IMG/VR virus record: IMGVR_UViG_643348547_000013
Strand: one strand, 5' to 3'
DNA: 46,955 nt
Source: a virus
Lineage: Duplodnaviria > Heunggongvirae > Uroviricota > Caudoviricetes
Position numbers and translations under genes: made by a program. The notes beneath the pieces are model-generated. The model did no database searches. It saw only the letters and a program-made list of their open reading frames with translations, and was not told where the DNA came from. Each line of letters starts with the position of its first letter. Position 1 is the stretch's first letter. Positions 3,860-46,955 of the stretch are shown piece after piece.

Positions 3860-4734
3860 ACCCCTACCTCTTCGAATTTCAATACCAATTGATCACCCCA
3901 GATTTCACATGACTCTGAACACGAGCCGGTATCGAATCGCCTGGCCTGTACCATCGCCTGATACAAATTTCTGTAGTCGCTGTTGGCAGACATTCTGGCA
4001 ATTCCGTCAAGCGTCAGGTGACCACGGTACATAACGTCTTTACCTGTTCTGCGATGACCATCCCTGACGTGTTTGCCTGTAACCAGCTCATTAAAAACTC
4101 GCATCAGACCAGGTTCGTCTTTACATGCAAGCCCCAGCTTTTGCGTTGACTTTTTGATGCAGAAAACACAGTTCCCGAGATGCTCCGGGATTTGCAAATC
4201 AAAAGGTTGTTTTCGCCACCACCGGATAACATCCGACTTATCAAAATCTGACAGTTCGGCAAGATACCGGACGCCCGATTTCGGTTTCAGCCTACGGGGT
4301 TCGTCTGCACGAATACCCAGCCATGTGATGTAATTACCTCGCCCGAAATGGTTATCGCAGTATTTCGTGAAAGGGATGAGTTTTAGCCTGTCAGTACAGA
4401 ACGCGCCGCCGATGTATGGCGTGCCGTACTTTTTAACCATGTCCATAAACGGTTTAAGTACCGACATTCGCGTCTGAATATCCTTTGGCTCCCATTCTGT
4501 ATAACCATTTGGCTGCCCAAGCTCAGGATTGATATCGACCTGCAACACAGTTAGTGGTATGCCCCAGAACTTCACAACCTCCCGAATAAAGCGGTATGTC
4601 AGCGGATGTTCGCAACCGGTATCCATAAAGATGTAGCAGACGTTATTGACAGCCTTTCTTTGTTCTTCCATCAGGTGAACAAGATATGCAGATGTTCTCC
4701 CGCCGGAAAAACTAACTACATGAGTTATGCACAT
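3856..4734 (-). CDS. PAPS-reductase-like (PP-loop ATP pyrophosphatase family) protein
   Basis: N-terminal SFSGGRTS PP-loop motif; GGAG RBS 9 nt upstream of ATG at 4734. Confidence 0.8.
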   Translation of the reverse strand: MCITHVVSFSGGRTSAYLVHLMEEQRKAVNNVCYIFMDTGCEHPLTYRFIREVVKFWGIPLTVLQVDINPELGQPNGYTEWEPKDIQTRMSVLKPFMDMVKKYGTPYIGGAFCTDRLKLIPFTKYCDNHFGRGNYITWLGIRADEPRRLKPKSGVRYLAELSDFDKSDVIRWWRKQPFDLQIPEHLGNCVFCIKKSTQKLGLACKDEPGLMRVFNELVTGKHVRDGHRRTGKDVMYRGHLTLDGIARMSANSDYRNLYQAMVQARRFDTGSCSESCEIWGDQLVLKFEEVGV

Positions 4735-4755
4735 TTGCGTAACTCCGATAACTCG

Positions 4756-5250
4756 TTAAAACGTTCCATAAACATCCCGTAGGCATGTCCTGGTGCCAGT
4801 GGAATCACTTTGAACATCGATACCTTCCAGTACAGGCCAGAAAGAGCCATCATCAAGCCCGAGATCGCGGCGTTCGGTTGCCAGCATAATGAGATCGGCA
4901 TATTTCACTGGCGTGCTCATAACAGGAGGTAACCCGTATTTCTCACGGATTACGGCGTCTATTTTTTCTTCCATCTGTTTATAGTCAGGAAGAAGGCGTT
5001 TCAGTGGCGCGGGGATGTCCTGACAATACGCTTCTGTTGCATCATGCATTAACGCTTCAAAAGCAAACTCCTCCGGAACCAGTTTGCTGCAAAGCACCGC
5101 ATGTTGGGCGACGCTGTAGAAGTGTGAAAGATGACCGGCAAAGCGACAGATATTTGAAAGGGAAACTGCGATATCGTTAATCACGATGTCGTCTTTATTT
5201 ATCCTGTCATAATAAAAATGCTTCCCGGAAAAAGTTTTAATAAATGACAT
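4756..5250 (-). CDS. yfdR: HD-domain phosphohydrolase (YfdR-like 5'-deoxynucleotidase family)
   Basis: H..H and HD motifs (HFYSVAQHAVL ... MHDATEAY); start set at internal Met (MSFIKTF) preceded by GGAG; the longer annotated start has no RBS. Confidence 0.7.
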   Translation of the reverse strand: MSFIKTFSGKHFYYDRINKDDIVINDIAVSLSNICRFAGHLSHFYSVAQHAVLCSKLVPEEFAFEALMHDATEAYCQDIPAPLKRLLPDYKQMEEKIDAVIREKYGLPPVMSTPVKYADLIMLATERRDLGLDDGSFWPVLEGIDVQSDSTGTRTCLRDVYGTF

Positions 5251-7376: not shown

Positions 7377-8051
7377 TTAGGCCTTTATTGTGTATCTTCT
7401 TGGTTTTCCCGAGAAAATCACTGTACCAATTATAGAGCAATTACCGTTAATCTTAATGTAAGGCTCAGGCCAGTTTGGGTTTAATGCTTTGAGATAACGC
7501 TGTGTTCCATCTTCTATCAACCGCTTGAAGGTGGTTTCGCCTGAATCGTGCATCAATGCAATAACGTCGTCACCGTGGCAGGCAGGGACTTCAGGATCAA
7601 CAAAAATCATGTCTCCCGGGCGGTACTCATCAATCATTGAATCACCAATCACCCGCAAGATATAAGTCATTTCGCCACAGGGTACAGGGCAGGGATAAGT
7701 TTCTGCTGTGCTCAAATCAACCTCAGAATAGCCAACTTCTTTCCATGCTCCGGCCTGTACCCATGATATGACAGGGACTAACGTTATTTGTTTGTTAGTG
7801 ATTGAAACATCAGGTTTTTTTGTGATGTTCGTGGTCTGGTGTTCTTGATCAAGCCATCCGACAGGCAGGTCGAAACATTTTTCGATGTGCCTTGCCATGC
7901 TGTCACCGATATTTTTAGTAGCACCATCTCCCATAAACCTGCTGGTCTGGGTTGGCTCGCGATCAATCATGGTGGCAAAGGAAGAATTCCCGCCAACACC
8001 ATCTCTCAGTTTTCTGGCGTTAGACCGCCGGATGTCATGGACTGTTTTCAT
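7377..8051 (-). CDS. CI-type phage repressor, LexA/S24 peptidase family
   Basis: 224-aa ORF with C-terminal S24 autopeptidase region (ILRVIGDSM...); divergent from cro-like gene. Confidence 0.85.
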   Translation of the reverse strand: MKTVHDIRRSNARKLRDGVGGNSSFATMIDREPTQTSRFMGDGATKNIGDSMARHIEKCFDLPVGWLDQEHQTTNITKKPDVSITNKQITLVPVISWVQAGAWKEVGYSEVDLSTAETYPCPVPCGEMTYILRVIGDSMIDEYRPGDMIFVDPEVPACHGDDVIALMHDSGETTFKRLIEDGTQRYLKALNPNWPEPYIKINGNCSIIGTVIFSGKPRRYTIKA

Positions 8052-8342: not shown

Positions 8343-8603
8343 CAGAACACCTTCAATTTTTAACCACAGAACGATGAGGCTAACCGTGGGTAAGCATCAC
8401 TGGAAAGTAGAAAAACAGCCTGAGTGGTACGTGAAAGCTGTCAGAAAAACTATCGCGGCGTTGCCGGGGGGGTACGCTGAAGCTGCTGAGTGGCTAGATG
8501 TAACAGAGAACGCTTTATTCAACCGCCTTCGTGCAGATGGCGATCAGATTGAACCGCCCCGGGAATCCTGGAGACTAAACTTCCTGAGAAAGAGGTAAAC
8601 AGG

Positions 8604-8930
8604 ATGACTAAAAATACTCGTTTTTCCCCCGAAGTCCGTCAACGGGCAGTCCGTATGGTTCTGGAAAGTCAGAGCGAATATGACTCACAATGGGCGACAA
8701 TTTGTTCCATTGCTCCAAAGACTGGCTGTACGCCGGAGACTCTGCGTGTCTGGGTTCGCCAGCATGAGCGGGATACCGGGGGCGGTGATGGAGGGCTCAC
8801 CACCGCTGAACGTCAGCGTCTGAAAGAGCTGGAACGTGAAAATCGTGAACTGCGCCGCAGTAACGATATCCTTCGCCAGGCTTCCGCTTATTTTGCGAAG
8901 GCGGAGTTCGACCGCCTCTGGAAAAAATGA
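8604..8930 (+). CDS. IS629 OrfA (transposase N-terminal HTH protein)
   Basis: 108-aa product [22 protein letters not shown]... recalled as IS629 OrfA; A6 slippery run at its 3' end. Confidence 0.9.
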
Positions 8931-17705: not shown

Positions 17706-17976
17706 TGGCGGTTTCCTGCTGTGAAAATGGGCGGCTGGTGGGTGTTGGTAGCACCTGCCAGCCATTCGCTCATGCTTACTGGTCACAAGCGAACCACGGC
17801 CCACTGCTTTAGCGCAAAAGCAGAGTGAGCCTACCAGAGTTACGCTTACTGATCCATGAAAAATACTGTAAAAATAAGGGTCTTCCCCTGTTGTGGTGGG
17901 TGGTACATAATTGAGTGATTTTCAAACACCACACAGTACCTTTATGGTGTCTCTTTTTACATGAGAGGGAATTCTT

Positions 17977-18495
17977 ATGAGTGTGCCGCAAACAAAAGCT
18001 GAACTGCTTTTAGCTATTGATAAAAATTTTAGTAAATTAATTAGTTACCTCAACACAATCCCACCAGAAATTACTTCAGATAAATCAATGGACGGACACG
18101 CCAAAGGAACGGAGATGAGTGTTCGTGATCTCGTTTCGTATCTGCTTGGATGGAATGCTCTTGTTGTAAAGTGGATCGCTTCTGATGCTAAAGGTCTGCC
18201 TGTCGATTTTCCGGAAACTGGCTATAAATGGAATCAGCTTGGCCTTCTTGCTCAAAAATTTTACTCAGATTACAGTGAGTTAAGTTATGAGTTGTTAGTA
18301 GCTGAACTTCAGACTGTAAAAAATGAGATTGTGAACCTTATTAATGATCGTACCGATGATATTTTGTATGGAAGACCATGGTACACAAAATGGACGATGG
18401 GGAGAATGATCTCATTTAACACATCTTCGCCTTACGCCAACGCTAATGGAAGATTAAGAAAGTGGGCAAAAAATAATAATATCAGTTTAAAGTAA
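17977..18495 (+). CDS. passenger gene inside the ISL3 element; tentatively ClbS/DUF1706-like four-helix-bundle protein
   Basis: 172-aa AT-rich ORF inside the IS boundaries, upstream of the transposase; family assignment is from memory only. Confidence 0.45.
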   Translation: MSVPQTKAELLLAIDKNFSKLISYLNTIPPEITSDKSMDGHAKGTEMSVRDLVSYLLGWNALVVKWIASDAKGLPVDFPETGYKWNQLGLLAQKFYSDYSELSYELLVAELQTVKNEIVNLINDRTDDILYGRPWYTKWTMGRMISFNTSSPYANANGRLRKWAKNNNISLK

Positions 18496-18513
18496 GCTTC
18501 AGAATGAAATTAT

Positions 18514-19734
18514 ATGGACGAAAAATCCCTCTATGCCCATATCCTTAACCTGACTGCACCATGGCAGGTTAAATCCCTTACCCTCGATGAAAATGCAGGT
18601 TCCGTTACTGTTACAGTCGGAATTGCTGAAAATACTCAGTTAACCTGTCCGACCTGCAGGAAATCCTGTTCTGTTCACGATCACCGACATCGTAAATGGC
18701 GCCACCTTGATACCTGCCAGTTCATGACATTAGTAGAAGCCGATGTTCCCCGCGTTATGTGCCCGGAGCATGGCTGCCAGACTCTGCCTGTACCGTGGGC
18801 AGGTTCCGGCAGTCGGTACACTCTGCTGTTCGAATCGTTCGTGCTCTCATGGCTTAAAATCAGCACCGTTGATGCGGTCAGAAAACAACTTAAACTTAGC
18901 TGGAATGCCGTTGACGGCATCATGACCCGCGCGGTTAAGCGAGGCCTGTCGCGGATTAAAAAGCCTTTATCAGTGCGTCATATGAATGTAGACGAAGTCG
19001 CCTTTAAAAAAGGGCATAGGTATATAACCGTGGTATCTGATCGCGACGGGCGGGCACTGGCATTAACCGATGATCGTGGCACAGAGAGTCTTGCCAGCTA
19101 TCTCCGTTCGCTTACTGACAGTCAGTTGTTGGCCATCAAAACACTGTCGATGGACATGAATGCGGGCTATATAAGAGCAGCGCGTATCCATTTACCCAAT
19201 GCGGTCGAGAAAATCGCCTTCGATCGCTTCCATGTGGCGAAGCAACTGGGCGAAGTGGTTGATAAAACCCGCCAGAATGAACATCCGCACCTCCCTGTTG
19301 AAAGTCGTCGTCAGGCCAAAGGTACCCGCTTCCTGTGGCAGTACAGCGACAAATGGATGACTGAGTCCCGGCAGGAAAAGCTGATGTGGTTGCGGGAACA
19401 GATGCAACAGACAAGCCAGTGCTGGACACTGAAAGAGCTGGCAAAAAATATCTGGGATCGCCCCTGGAGCACAGAACGCAGGAATGACTGGTTGCAGTGG
19501 ATATCGCTGGCGTCTGAATGTGATGTGCCGATGATGAAAAACGCAGCGAAAACCATTAAAAAACGGTTATACGGAATACTGAATGCAATGCGTCATCGCG
19601 TCTCGAATGGAAATGCGGAGGCGCTGAACAGCAAGATCAGACTGCTGAGGATAAAGGCCAGGGGATACCGAAACCGGGAACGCTTTAAACTGGGAGTTAT
19701 GTTCCACTATGGGAAACTGAATATGGCGTACTGA
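18514..19734 (+). CDS. ISL3-family transposase
   Basis: 406-aa single-ORF transposase with N-terminal zinc-finger-like CxxC...H region typical of ISL3. Confidence 0.85.
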   Translation: MDEKSLYAHILNLTAPWQVKSLTLDENAGSVTVTVGIAENTQLTCPTCRKSCSVHDHRHRKWRHLDTCQFMTLVEADVPRVMCPEHGCQTLPVPWAGSGSRYTLLFESFVLSWLKISTVDAVRKQLKLSWNAVDGIMTRAVKRGLSRIKKPLSVRHMNVDEVAFKKGHRYITVVSDRDGRALALTDDRGTESLASYLRSLTDSQLLAIKTLSMDMNAGYIRAARIHLPNAVEKIAFDRFHVAKQLGEVVDKTRQNEHPHLPVESRRQAKGTRFLWQYSDKWMTESRQEKLMWLREQMQQTSQCWTLKELAKNIWDRPWSTERRNDWLQWISLASECDVPMMKNAAKTIKKRLYGILNAMRHRVSNGNAEALNSKIRLLRIKARGYRNRERFKLGVMFHYGKLNMAY

Positions 19735-19745
19735 GTCTTCCCACC

Positions 19746-20801
19746 ATGATCGGGGAAGACCCAAAAATAAACAGTGTTGATTTAATCAACGCTGATTGCC
19801 TGCATTTTATTCAGTCCCTGCCTGATGATTCCATTGACCTGATTGTTACCGATCCGCCTTACTTCAAGGTGAAACCCAACGGTTGGGACAATCAGTGGAA
19901 AGGGGATGAAGATTACCTTAAGTGGCTGGACCACTGTCTGGCCCAGTTCTGGCGGGTGTTAAAACCTGCCGGAAGCCTTTACCTGTTCTGTGGGCATCGC
20001 CTGGCATCTGATATTGAGATCATGATGCGTGAACGTTTCAACGTGCTTAACCATATCATCTGGGCGAAGCCGTCCGGACGTTGGAATGGGTGTAATAAAG
20101 AAAGTCTGCGCGCATATTTTCCTGCCACAGAGCGCGTTCTGTTTGCTGAACATTACCAGGGGCCATATCGCGGCAAAAGTGACGGCTATGCGGCAAAAGA
20201 AAGGGCACTCAAACAGCACATAATGGCACCGCTGATATCGTATTTCAGGGATGCTCGTGCCGAACTGGGTATAACGGCAAAACAAATTGCCGAAGCCACA
20301 GGTAAGAAAAATATGGTTTCCCACTGGTTTGGTGCCAGTCAGTGGCAGTTGCCGAATGAGGCTGACTATCGGAAGTTACAGGCACTGTTTTCCCGTATAG
20401 CGGCAGAGAAGTTTCAGGAACAACAACTGGAACAACCACACCACCAGCTGGTGGCATCTTATGATTCACTGAATCGCAAATATTCTGAATTGCTGGATGA
20501 GTTTAAATCTCTCCGGCGCTATTTCTCCGTATCAGTCTCCGTGCCTTATACCGATGTCTGGATGCATAAACCCGTTCAGTTCTACCCGGGTAAACATCCG
20601 TGTGAGAAACCGGCGGATATGCTCAGGCAAATAATCAATGCCAGTAGTCGACCTGGTGATCTGGTTGCTGATTTTTTTATGGGATCCGGTTCCACAATAA
20701 AAGCAGCAATGGCGCTGGGGCGTCTGGCCTTAGGTGTTGAGCTTGAGTCAGAGCGGTTTAACCAGACAGTGAAAGAGATAAACGAGCTGGTGGGGAAATA
20801 A
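19746..20801 (+). CDS. DNA methyltransferase (beta-class N6/N4 type) with IS-derived hybrid N-terminus
   Basis: DPPY motif (TDPPYF) near N-terminus and FxGxG AdoMet motif (FFMGSGST) near C-terminus; first six codons lie in the ISL3 right end; original start ATG at 17856. Confidence 0.8.
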   Translation: MIGEDPKINSVDLINADCLHFIQSLPDDSIDLIVTDPPYFKVKPNGWDNQWKGDEDYLKWLDHCLAQFWRVLKPAGSLYLFCGHRLASDIEIMMRERFNVLNHIIWAKPSGRWNGCNKESLRAYFPATERVLFAEHYQGPYRGKSDGYAAKERALKQHIMAPLISYFRDARAELGITAKQIAEATGKKNMVSHWFGASQWQLPNEADYRKLQALFSRIAAEKFQEQQLEQPHHQLVASYDSLNRKYSELLDEFKSLRRYFSVSVSVPYTDVWMHKPVQFYPGKHPCEKPADMLRQIINASSRPGDLVADFFMGSGSTIKAAMALGRLALGVELESERFNQTVKEINELVGK

Positions 20802-20867
20802 TCTGGTGGCCACGCAGGTGGCCTTTTTATTTCCATTACACAGCACCCGCATCTGCGAGGTGGGGTT

Positions 20868-21083
20868 ATGAAATCCATGGATAAGTTAACAACGGGTGTC
20901 GCCTATGGCACCTCAGCAGGTAGTGCCGGTTACTGGTTTTTACAGCTGCTCGATAAAGTCACGCCCTCACAGTGGGCAGCAATAGGTGTGCTGGGTAGCC
21001 TGGTATTTGGCCTGCTGACGTACCTGACAAACCTTTATTTCAAGATTAAAGAAGATAAGCGCAAGGCTGCGAGAGGTGAATAA
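20868..21083 (+). CDS. class II holin (phage 21 S-type pinholin)
   Basis: 71-aa product with two TM segments, resembling S21. Confidence 0.85.
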
Positions 21084-21580
21084 TGCCTCCATCATTACGA
21101 AAAGCAGTTGCTGCTGCTATTGGTGGCGGAGCAATTGCTATAGCATCAGTGTTAATCACTGGCCCAAGTGGTGACGATGGCCTGGAAGGTGTCAGCTACA
21201 TACCATACAAAGATATCGTTGGCGTATGGACTGTATGTCACGGACACACCGGAAAAGACATCATGCTCGGTAAAACGTATACCGAAGCAGAATGCAAAGC
21301 CCTCCTGAATAAAGACCTTGCCACGGTCGCCAGACAAATTAACCCGTACATCAAAGTCGATATACCGGAAACAACGCGCGGCGCTCTTTACTCGTTCGTC
21401 TACAACGTGGGTGCTGGCAATTTCAGAACATCGACGCTTCTTCGCAAAATAAACCAGGGCGATATCAAAGGCGCATGTGACCAGCTACGTCGCTGGACAT
21501 ACGCTGGCGGTAAGCAATGGAAAGGCCTGATGACTCGTCGTGAGATTGAGCGTGAAGTCTGTTTGTGGGGGCAACAATGA
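21083..21580 (+). CDS. SAR endolysin (lysozyme, phage 21 R-type)
   Basis: N-terminal signal-anchor-release region followed by lysozyme domain. Confidence 0.85.
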
Positions 21581-22044
21581 GCAGAGTAACCGCGATTATC
21601 TCCGCTCTGGTTATCTGCATCATCGTCTGCCTGTCGTGGGCGGTCAATCATTACCGTGATAACGCCATCGCCTACAAAGAACAGCGAGATAAAAAAGTCA
21701 GTGAGCTGAAGCAGGCGACCGCCACCATTACTGACATGCAGCAGCGCCAGCGTTCTGCTGATGCACTCGATGCTAAATACACGAAGGAGTTAGCTGATGC
21801 GAAAGCTGAAAATGATGCTCTTCGGCGCAAGCTTGATAATGGTGGTCGGGTGTTCGTCAAAGGAAAATGCCCTGTGCCATCCTCAGCCGAAACCTCCAGC
21901 GCCTCCGGCATGGGCAATGATGCCACCGTCGAACTCTCTCCAGTTGCTGGACGAAACGTTCTCGGTATCCGGGACGGAATTATCCGCGACCAAACAGCAC
22001 TGAGAACGCTTCAGGAATACATCAGGACGCAATGCCTTCGATGA
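21577..22044 (+). CDS. Rz i-spanin
   Basis: N-terminal TM then coiled-coil; ATGA overlap with endolysin stop. Confidence 0.7.
21797..22003 (+). CDS. Rz1 o-spanin lipoprotein, embedded in Rz in the +1 frame
   Basis: Lipobox (VVGC) and proline-rich segment, entirely inside Rz. Confidence 0.6.
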
Positions 22045-22627: not shown

Positions 22628-23075
22628 TCCATTAGCGAGTTGTATTGATCACAACTCTTCAAAGAATTCATTACTGGGTAGATGAAAATAGTTTCACGAT
22701 GAATGGAGGAGGCTATGTTGGTGGCTTCTTCATTGGAGTACATATGCCCCCACGACCCCCAAAAACCTGCCGTGTTCGCGGCTACCGCAATACCACCACA
22801 GATCCGTCAGGCTATTGCAAAAGCCACAAAAGCGAAGGCTGGAAGCAATACAAGCCGGGCCAGTCCTGTCATCAGCGCGGTTATGGTTCGCGGGGTTGTC
22901 CCTCATGCTCGCCAGTCCTGTGCGGGGGTGGAAGAAACAGGACACTCACACAGATTCTTGTGGGTCGATGCTATTCCTTTCTGGATTATCCCGATGCCAT
23001 TCATGCAAGGGCTGTATCAGACGTTCGTTATGGCTGTCAGGCTGACGGGTCCTCCCGGTGGGGTGGCCTGCCACG

Positions 23076-45584: not shown

Positions 45585-46955
45585 CTATGATATCCCTGAA
45601 ATGTCCTCTTCAAGCTCTTTTACTGATTTCGCAATTTTAAATTTAAATTTTCTCTCTATTTCACTATTGCTAAGTTTTTTTTCATTCTCTTTCCCTATCC
45701 ACATAGAAACAATTTCTCGTTTCTGAGATATATGTAGATTGTCAAAGTTAGGTATGTATTTAAAAGTCTCCGCTCTACCCCTGCGGAGTTCATAGAAAGT
45801 TTTAATCAAAGACTTTGGTTTTATTTCTGATGAAAGGCCGAATCGGCGGATAAGATTATTGATCGTATGATTAACAGCTCGAAGTTGAGCTGTTGACGTT
45901 ATTTGTGAGAAGTACGATACCCATCCCAATCGTTTACCTTCAAACACACATCCCGTAATTCTAAGATTTAGTTTCCACTGACAATATGCAACAGCTCGTT
46001 CTTTATCGCGCTTATTTTTAGCTTGTAGTAGAGCGTGTCTATATGCAGTAAAAATTTTTGCTAAGGATGACTCAAATCTAAGAATGCTCTCATGTTTTAT
46101 CAATAATTCTCGATTTTTTATGTGGTAGCCCAAAAAGTTGAAACTTTCATCCAAGCTGCCTACTTTGGATTTTGAGTTCTCTTCATTTAATGGATGTGGG
46201 TTTAAATTTAATGATTGAAGCTTATCAATGATATGAGATGCAATTTTTGTTGCTTGATCTTTTTGCGTTAAAATAAGAATGTCATCAACGTATCGCATGT
46301 ACCATATGTCATGCATTTTATTGATTTCATTGTCGAAATCAGATAGTGATATTTCAGCTAAAATGTTTGATATTGCTAACCCCTGAGGTACTCCTCTGGT
46401 ATTATTAGGGACACCTTTGCTTCCTGTACTTCCACTTACAGTAGGCACGATTAATGATGATGTTATTAACTGCCTAATTTCTTTTTTTCTAATCTTATTT
46501 TTTATTGCATTAAATATCAATTTATGTTCAATTGAAGGATAGAAACTTTTGAGATCTATTTTTGCATATTCAGCATATAGATCGCTGTTTAATGCATTTT
46601 TCAATAAGTCAATTACTGTATGTGGTAGTTTTAATCTGGAGTTAGGATATATTTCTGTAAGGCATTCACAGAGAGCCCTAAGGGTAATTCTGTCCCTGGC
46701 AGTTGGTATGGAAATCTGTCTGGGGATAGAGTTAGCCCCTTTAGATATTAATTTTTCTTTATATGCTGTAAATTTATAATTTCCACAATTAACCTTTTCA
46801 AAAATAAAAGTGATCTCATTCTTTATTGTTAAATCAAGTTTTGATGGACGAATCCGATCTATGCCAATCGCTCCTGATTCTTTGATTTTTTCATTGTATA
46901 CTTTTAGAAGGTTTTTTTTCGAGAATGACTTTTTAAAAACTCTGCTTGCATTCAT
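45585..46955 (-). CDS. standalone reverse transcriptase (retron / Abi / DRT-like), family unresolved
   Basis: 456-aa AT-rich ORF with RT motifs in order: PRQISIPTARDRITLRAL, NALNS...KIDLKSFYPSI, PQGLAISNILAEI, YVDD (YMRYVDDILIL), FNFLGYHI, then a roughly 180-aa C-terminal extension; start codon sits at the window edge. Confidence 0.85.
   Translation of the reverse strand: MNASRVFKKSFSKKNLLKVYNEKIKESGAIGIDRIRPSKLDLTIKNEITFIFEKVNCGNYKFTAYKEKLISKGANSIPRQISIPTARDRITLRALCECLTEIYPNSRLKLPHTVIDLLKNALNSDLYAEYAKIDLKSFYPSIEHKLIFNAIKNKIRKKEIRQLITSSLIVPTVSGSTGSKGVPNNTRGVPQGLAISNILAEISLSDFDNEINKMHDIWYMRYVDDILILTQKDQATKIASHIIDKLQSLNLNPHPLNEENSKSKVGSLDESFNFLGYHIKNRELLIKHESILRFESSLAKIFTAYRHALLQAKNKRDKERAVAYCQWKLNLRITGCVFEGKRLGWVSYFSQITSTAQLRAVNHTINNLIRRFGLSSEIKPKSLIKTFYELRRGRAETFKYIPNFDNLHISQKREIVSMWIGKENEKKLSNSEIERKFKFKIAKSVKELEEDISGIS

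Follow-up and report, generated by a model that had tools for sequence, protein, structure and literature searches.

ISEc53 and its ISL3-family relatives at LexA-type boxes: an insertion at the start of a prophage methyltransferase gene of Escherichia coli IAI39

Why does an insertion sequence (IS) of the ISL3 family, carrying a passenger gene, lie seven codons into a prophage methyltransferase gene? The locus is in a 46,955-nucleotide stretch (the window; IMG/VR record IMGVR_UViG_643348547_000013), which is a part of the Escherichia coli IAI39 chromosome that holds a lambdoid prophage (window base 17600 is base 5069305 of NC_011750.1). The first-pass annotation of the window had described the insertion, and what it said of the sequence stands; it missed the likely cause of the seven-codon position, targeting of a LexA box. 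Judged from sequence comparisons, the element, ISEc53, very probably transposed into the centre of this box by the normal target choice of its clade, splitting the operator and leaving a hybrid methyltransferase open reading frame (ORF).

LexA-type boxes as targets of ISEc53 and its relatives

The reconstructed target, TACTGT-AAAAATAA-ACAGTG (TACTGTAAAAATAAACAGTG), is a 20-bp palindrome of the form CTGT-N8-ACAG, that is, a LexA (SOS) box. Its 8-bp spacer is the target-site duplication (TSD) that had been proposed from the window alone: AAAAATAA stands at both junctions and occurs once in the empty site, and staggered cuts at both edges of the spacer would duplicate it. We scored the box with a position weight matrix built from 17 published K-12 SOS boxes (PMC3009722 Table 4), which themselves score 13.9-28.2 bits, and found that TACTGTAAAAATAAACAGTG reaches 23.4 bits, compared with 22.3 for recA, 22.4 for sulA and 20.4 for lexA. 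It is the best LexA match of the 45-kb window without the IS (9.5 bits for the runner-up; 99.9th percentile, 3.1 bits), and it overlaps codons 3-10 of the methyltransferase gene. After insertion the operator is split and the best LexA score in 17800-19850 is 4.1 bits, a value on which we also rejected a LexA box re-formed within the IS or across its junctions.

The left end of ISEc53 is scarce in viral and metagenomic collections (2 IMG/VR stretches only, plus one contig of a metagenome-assembled genome among 100,044 species representatives), so the wider sampling was drawn from E. coli genomes and exact-protein look-ups. Copies were picked blind to their flanks, as the top BLAST matches and the 'distinct contexts' of the exact-protein look-up. 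We found CTG-N10-CAG at 12 of the 14 distinct ISEc53 sites, with the two TSD copies identical at 8/8 positions in 12 of the 14. The sites include the operators of sbmC, umuDC and dinD and also symE; a plasmid dinI-impAB operon, a dinI/umuD-like intergenic region and the entD-ybdK region, where we take the SOS gene hokE to lie; and the Mor promoter region of a Mu-like prophage, another prophage site, a plasmid site and the inside of an IS3-family gene.

The same motif was found for ISKox3, at 7 of 8 distinct sites (tisB/istR, dinD, sbmC, the umuD-like gene of IncX3 NDM plasmids, two prophage sites and an Enterobacter phage), and for more distant relatives, given here with their transposase identity: Yersinia (73%), 4/4 sites; Sodalis ISSoEn4 (71%), 1/1, beside uvrD and with another inverted IS end as its right end; Providencia (64%), 1/2; and Achromobacter (46%), 2/3. 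An 88% relative in E. coli had it at 0/1 sites. Altogether CTG-N10-CAG stands at 27 of the 33 distinct sites, aligned to the base with the 8-bp TSD, where chance would give 2.4e-4 per site. The symmetrised consensus of all 33 sites, TACTGTATATATATACAGTA, is a textbook LexA box, and the reconstructed sbmC, umuD, dinD and tisB/istR sites equal or nearly equal published K-12 SOS boxes.

Single boxes have been struck repeatedly. The insertion at the IAI39 site is unique to IAI39 among 5426 complete genomes, and the methyltransferase box has been hit three times independently: by ISEc53 in the '+' orientation in IAI39, by ISEc53 in the '-' orientation in AREA_494, whose Q region differs from that of IAI39, and by an ISKox3-type end in the IMG/VR contig L070, at the same base pair. 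Likewise, dinD and one prophage site hold ISEc53 in both orientations, and at sbmC the orientations of ISEc53 and ISKox3 are opposite.

Several observations accompany these sites. Many clinical E. coli have ISEc53 or ISKox3 splitting a textbook SOS operator, for example Nissle 1917 (sbmC) and CE10 (umuD); among our loci, IS-split operators are those of umuD (L017, L035), symE (L024), tisB (L297), sbmC (L007, L010-L013, L027, L304) and dinD (L015, L023, L299, L303). At the sbmC site a -10-like TATACT, seen by eye, overlaps the left half-site, and promoter capture may occur there. The two ISEc53 exceptions are fimB of ST131 (sequence type 131) and one other site. The ISL3 insertion long familiar from fimB of ST131-type genomes (L008, L018, L021, L029, L030, L032-L034) is ISEc53, flanked by ATATATAT / TATATACA, an imperfect duplication; this insertion is an off-target event amplified by clonal expansion. 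In L131/L132, which hold an E. coli relative with 69% transposase identity, the target is TACTGT-GTATATATAT-ACAGTG with a 10-bp spacer, beside an S24-peptidase gene. The insertion there is off-centre, with an 8-bp duplication that abuts the left half-site only, and spacer measuring may start from one half-site. We give this element and the Sodalis one as they stand, without fitting them to the rule.

The interrupted methyltransferase gene and its hybrid reading frame

An ORF restored from ATG 17856, as the first-pass annotation had reconstructed it, is what genomes without the insertion have. Phage Ayreon represents the empty site and reads ...gatccATGAAAAATACTGTAAAAATAAACAGTGTTGAT..., with one AAAAATAA and the ORF start MKNTVKINSVDL; 68 IMG/VR contigs read like it, the region is also uninterrupted in phages cdtI, mEp460 and vB_EcoS-569R4, and uninterrupted homologues of the methyltransferase begin MKNTVKINSVDL. 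The product has a Pfam N6_N4_Mtase domain (E = 2e-41) and the motif order of the beta class (DPPY N-terminal, central target-recognition domain, FxGxG C-terminal); in the hybrid ORF, TDPPYF occupies residues 34-39 and FFMGSGS ~310-316. It shares this order, a prophage setting and probably silence in lysogens with M.EcoGII and M.EcoGI, and 277 of 344 residues (81%) are identical to M.EcoGII as transcribed from the machine-read supplement of PMC11551740; it differs from both in its first five residues, which are swapped for six IS-encoded ones. M.EcoGII, itself encoded by a prophage, methylates adenine without sequence specificity; it is silent in lysogens, and its constitutive expression does harm.

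The box is kept across this family. All 43 distinct 5' variants of the methyltransferase gene, taken from IMG/VR loci found with three diverged queries, keep ACT GTR ... nnC AGY and score 21-25 bits; since these sequences are related, the comparison is suggestive and not a formal test. The Thr codon is always ACT and Val is GTA or GTG; codon 8, which encodes Asn, Ser or His, invariably has C in third position; Ser9 uses AGY throughout and TCN in no variant; and codons 2, 10, 11 and 12 vary freely. Hence, because the codon-level constraint matches the box, the conserved peptide NTVKI(N/S)S follows the DNA palindrome. The pattern suggests a real LexA site across the start region of M.EcoGII-type toxic genes. 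In five of the IMG/VR loci (L163, L255, L257, L258, L259) the 5' end reads ATGAAAATACTGT, not ATGAAAAATACTGT; the A5 run is shortened to A4, which shifts the frame to an immediate stop and leaves the SOS box intact. This shortening may be slippage-based on/off switching or a sequencing error.

In IAI39 the methyltransferase frame is reopened from within the IS. As first noted from the window, an in-frame ATG in the IS right end starts a hybrid ORF; it has 351 aa (MIGEDPKINSVDL...), and RefSeq annotates this same ORF. Six IS-encoded residues (MIGEDP) take the place of the native five (MKNTV) and are followed by native residues 6-350. The ATG lies inside the right terminal inverted repeat (IRR), 17 nt from its tip; the transposase stop (TGA, 19732-19734) ends 12 nt before the ATG starts (11 nt between). 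The ISKox3-type end in L070 forms the same fusion. Since alignments to solved beta-class methyltransferases start at residue 10, the swapped residues lie outside the conserved core, and a hybrid enzyme, once made, would probably work.

The sequence context does not favour expression of the hybrid ORF. No Shine-Dalgarno sequence was found upstream of the hybrid ATG, nor upstream of the native start, and the AUG falls in the 10-nt loop of a GC-rich RNA hairpin whose 5' arm contains the UGA stop; the 71-nt context around the hairpin folds at -16.6 kcal/mol, and the native start region is unstructured. On these grounds, ribosomes are expected to initiate poorly de novo at the hybrid ATG.

These features also speak for a rival reading, to which we give slightly less than an even chance: the insertion simply inactivated the methyltransferase, and the hybrid ORF is an annotation artefact without a product in a decaying prophage. 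In the prophage, ymfL does hold a second IS, yfdR is frameshifted and an HNH gene is truncated; the opposite orientation in AREA_494 yields no in-frame ATG (the sole upstream ATG there is out of frame and meets an immediate stop); and the frame agreement of the hybrid ATG is a 1-in-3 chance. Set against this, a transposase stop 11 nt upstream of the AUG would permit termination-reinitiation, in which the terminating ribosome would melt the hairpin; the remainder of the ORF shows no damage and matches phage homologues at 99% identity; and the native start is equally without a Shine-Dalgarno sequence. The conserved peptide NTVKI(N/S)S, a further argument against a functional hybrid, is weakened by the codon analysis and not removed by it.

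If the hybrid is translated, ribosomes ending at the transposase stop would re-initiate at its AUG as the main route. In our consensus promoter scan neither the passenger nor the hybrid ORF nor the native methyltransferase start had a sigma-70-like site to drive it, and the window scan found no '+' strand terminator-like site within ISEc53. The element lies in the late operon, 3' of the Q antiterminator gene and in the same orientation as Q, and the methyltransferase gene is between Q and the holin gene, behind two terminators. In lambda, Q-modified polymerase ignores terminators. Hence, late transcription should cross the IS; upon prophage induction it would reach the lysis genes, and the read-through would co-express the passenger protein and the transposase with them.

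How the targets are chosen

ISEc53, ISKox3 and related ISL3 transposases very probably insert with high specificity at CTGT-N8-ACAG, in either orientation, and we prefer a mechanism in which a symmetric transpososome reads the palindrome directly. The wider claim, that the whole clade (ISEc53, ISKox3, ISSoEn4 and relatives to ~46% identity in Gamma- and Betaproteobacteria) consists of SOS-box hunters and that the M.EcoGII family is LexA-controlled, we hold as somewhat better than a toss-up on the present sequences.

The following points weigh against these proposals. Six of the 33 sites lack the full motif, including the clonally abundant ST131 fimB insertion, which makes the specificity strong and not absolute. 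The sampled sites are survivors in sequenced genomes, and selection could have sharpened the pattern. At the methyltransferase box, a scan found no consensus promoter, and the putative operator is within the ORF. Residues N3-T4-V5 of the native protein are conserved in the family; a DNA motif is one possible reason and the importance of the peptide another. The machine-read source of the M.EcoGII sequence also belongs here.

It is unlikely, in our view, that the transposase recognises operator-bound LexA protein (tethering) instead of the DNA sequence. At none of its informative positions does the target consensus depart from that of LexA, down to the AT-rich (TA)n spacer and the tolerated CTGG/CCAG variants, and most sites are proven or plausible operators. 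However, a LexA dimer on the half-sites beside the cuts would probably stand in the way of the transposase, the targets include low-scoring boxes or half-sites (3-14 bits) and sites within ORFs, and a palindromic target is what a symmetric transpososome would read directly.

Very improbable is random insertion into AT-rich DNA followed by selection, either on SOS derepression or disconnection or on a clbS-like gene behind SOS promoters: many sites do control genes whose loss could be advantageous or neutral (umuDC, symE, tisB, dinD, sbmC) and the insertions at fimB, L036, traF-trbA and L134 are off consensus, but the TSD is always the 8-bp spacer in exact register and in both orientations, some of the boxes struck lie within ORFs or within another IS, the same rule holds for passenger-less ISKox3 and for relatives from four other genera, and expression-based selection would not need such base-pair precision, all of which argues for mechanistic target choice over post-insertion selection.

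The element, its passenger, the prophage and the meaning of the target rule

The element is identical to ISEc53 over its whole length (100%, 1885 bp), with both genes, the inverted repeats and the 8-bp TSD in common and nothing that differs; the name is the RefSeq label ('ISL3-like element ISEc53 family transposase') of identical copies and not an ISfinder entry. Its transposase matches three ISL3 domains of Pfam (Zn_ribbon_ISL3 PF14690, 3e-10; HTH_Tnp_ISL3 PF13542, 3e-12; DDE_Tnp_ISL3 PF01610, 1e-58), which together with this identity bears out the family assignment of the first-pass annotation. Alignments of hundreds of 100%-identical copies in unrelated contexts stop exactly at bases 1 and 1885. 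Hence, the boundaries are proven, and they are those first drawn, along with the terminal inverted repeats of about 23 bp: the left one (IRL), GGGTCTTCCCCTGTTGTGGTGGG, and the reverse complement of IRR, GGGTCTTCCCCGATCATGGTGGG, are identical at 19 of 23 positions. Near-full copies (at least 80% coverage) number 715 records in 657 of 5426 complete E. coli genomes, on chromosomes and plasmids, and the site-specific junction AATACTGTAAAAATAAGGGTCTTCCCC has no exact match in IMG/VR or in the metagenomes of the Joint Genome Institute. The contig among the species representatives, JAIJJM010000018.1 (14140 bp, from a 'Collinsella sp.' assembly, L006), has the last 99 bp of ISEc53 at its start and the first 97 bp at its end; this segment between two ISEc53 copies is almost certainly Enterobacterial DNA mis-binned into a Collinsella genome.

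ISKox3 (ISL3 family, 1316 bp) shares with ISEc53 the inverted-repeat tips, the left end and leader and the 8-bp TSD, its transposase gene and IRR are 84.5% identical in nucleotides, and its targets are likewise LexA boxes (dinD, sbmC, tisB and the IncX3 umuD-like gene). ISKox3 has no passenger, whereas ISEc53 has a 566-bp clbS-like cassette that ends where the transposase start, ATGGACGAAAA, recurs. From this comparison, ISEc53 is an ISKox3-like IS that gained a clbS-like cassette of ~0.57 kb between its left end and leader and its transposase gene. The Achromobacter relative (L133-L135, element ~1131-2945) is ~1.8 kb long with ~0.5 kb extra after the transposase gene, which may be another passenger, at the opposite end from that of ISEc53.

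The tentative assignment of the passenger to the ClbS/DUF1706 family was borne out by a full-length profile match (E = 3e-54; residues 1-165 against profile positions 1-166 of 166) and by 54% identity to ClbS (PDB 6ANR) over 166 residues (1e-55); membership was judged by sequence and not by structure comparison. The protein is identical to chain A of PDB 5COF, deposited as 'uncharacterized protein'. ClbS, the cyclopropane hydrolase of colibactin self-resistance, has its gene in the pks island, and the ISEc53 passenger of the same Pfam family is instead carried by an IS. Tyr55 of ClbS is aligned and conserved in the passenger, within VSYL(L/I)GW; it is said to have been named as the catalytic residue by Tripathi and co-workers in 2017. 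Since the clbS-like gene is present in hundreds of identical ISEc53 copies, it is a fixed part of the IS and not a recent capture.

Silpe et al. 2022 list the exact passenger protein (WP_000115885.1) among ClbS-like proteins; all those they tested protected against colibactin-induced prophage induction, and the protective proteins include a close 172-aa E. coli variant. By analogy with these relatives, the passenger most likely hydrolyses colibactin-type cyclopropane warheads. That an IS moves a colibactin-protection gene, as the first-pass annotation had supposed, is a reasonable idea and already in the literature: the passages found of a preprint (bioRxiv 10.1101/2025.11.17.686825) describe, for chromosomes, plasmids and prophages of E. 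coli, a clbS-like gene beside an ISL3 transposase, with the same gene pair and the same idea of mobile colibactin immunity as for ISEc53, and call for experiments. Those passages place the pair 'near otherwise unrelated genes' and contain no LexA-box rule.

The coordinates of the features are collected in Table 1. The prophage has an integrase, a cI-like repressor, Q, a lysis cassette and lambda-like structural genes, and it is partly decayed. Besides the cI-like LexA-family repressor ymfK, the window encodes a small 'LexA family transcriptional regulator' directly after a second, Dam-like methyltransferase. At the far prophage end, beside tail-fibre genes, a gene with a reverse-transcriptase domain is followed by a SLATT-domain gene, a pair that looks like a retron or reverse-transcriptase-type defence cargo.

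Table 1. Features of the ISEc53 insertion and its surroundings (window positions)
Feature	Position	Strand	Remarks
Native methyltransferase 5' end, orphaned	17856..17877	+	ATG, codons 2-7 and first base of codon 8; ends with left TSD copy
Left half-site TACTGT	17864..17869		LexA-box-like palindrome
TSD, left copy AAAAATAA	17870..17877		8-bp spacer of the LexA-type box
ISEc53, ISL3 family, 1885 bp	17878..19762	+	100% identity over bases 1-1885 to copies in hundreds of genomes
IRL GGGTCTTCCCCTGTTGTGGTGGG	17878..17900	+	First ~25 nt common to ISKox3
ClbS/DfsB-family (DUF1706) passenger, 172 aa	17977..18495	+	Pfam DUF1706
ISL3 transposase, 406 aa	18514..19734	+	Three ISL3 Pfam domains
RNA hairpin at IS right end	19732..19763	+	GC-rich; UGA stop in 5' arm, AUG in loop
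IRR CCCACCATGATCGGGGAAGACCC	19740..19762	-	Holds outward-facing ATG at 19746
Hybrid methyltransferase ORF, 351 aa	19746..20801	+	RefSeq WP_000578748.1 'DNA-methyltransferase'
TSD, right copy AAAAATAA	19763..19770		
Right half-site ACAGTG	19771..19776		LexA-box-like palindrome
Q-type antiterminator gene	15820..16572	+	RefSeq IAI39 annotation; layout matches phage Ayreon
Terminator-like hairpin 3' of methyltransferase gene	20808..20823	+	Phage Ayreon has an annotated terminator in the corresponding position
Lysis cassette (holin, lysozyme, Rz-like)	20868..22044	+	Downstream, same operon as methyltransferase
yfdR	4725..5250		Frameshifted
ymfK	7377..8051		cI-like LexA-family repressor
Second IS, IS3 family	8604..9817		Programmed frameshift; splits ymfL (flanks 8386-8556 and 9858-10250)
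'Phage N-6-adenine-methyltransferase' (Dam-like), then regulator	12618..13594		Small LexA-family regulator at 13268-13594
HNH endonuclease gene	22744..22893		Truncated
Reverse-transcriptase-domain gene, then SLATT-domain gene	45585..46955	-	

The element, its passenger and the idea of mobile colibactin immunity are known already, and the insertion alone is a modest matter: a known IS, a known passenger and an interrupted phage gene. The main interest is the target rule, the repeated independent strikes on the methyltransferase box and the conserved SOS box in M.EcoGII-type genes. Full-text literature searches, whose scope leaves out most subscription journals and ISfinder, turned up no account of any IS, ISEc53 and ISKox3 included, that targets LexA boxes, and the rule is likely unreported. 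Site-specific elements as such are familiar: IS1397 and ISKpn1 in repetitive extragenic palindromes and bacterial interspersed mosaic elements (REP/BIME), IS30 at palindromic hot spots, Tn7 at attTn7 and the res hunters of the Tn5053 type. These likewise choose a short, recurrent and often palindromic motif and so avoid most coding DNA. Unlike theirs, the ISEc53 motif is the operator of a global stress repressor, so that each insertion rewires an SOS-controlled gene.

If the rule is true, each transposition would destroy a LexA operator, derepressing or disconnecting umuDC, sbmC, dinD, tisB or symE. The rule would predict the landing places, namely any good SOS box, and explain the distribution of two clinically ubiquitous ISs: ISKox3 is found on IncX3 blaNDM plasmids beside umuD-like genes, and ISEc53 in ST131, ST69 and Nissle 1917. 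SOS boxes are common on plasmids and prophages, by which the IS would be ferried onto mobile DNA and spread horizontally. ISEc53 would add a resistance gene against colibactin, that is, against DNA damage, and so link this gene physically to the DNA-damage circuitry. Carriage of these ISs would change the SOS regulon strain by strain, in the error-prone polymerase V, the toxins TisB and SymE and the gyrase inhibitor SbmC, which bear on mutagenesis, persistence and quinolone tolerance; in strains with IS-split operators, differences are to be expected in SOS mutagenesis, in the induction of toxins or in how the gyrase inhibitor is expressed. The ISEc53 clade would also provide a natural, compact, sequence-specific DDE transposase for dissecting the mechanism of targeting, and the conserved SOS box offers a testable explanation of why M.EcoGII-type genes are silent in lysogens.

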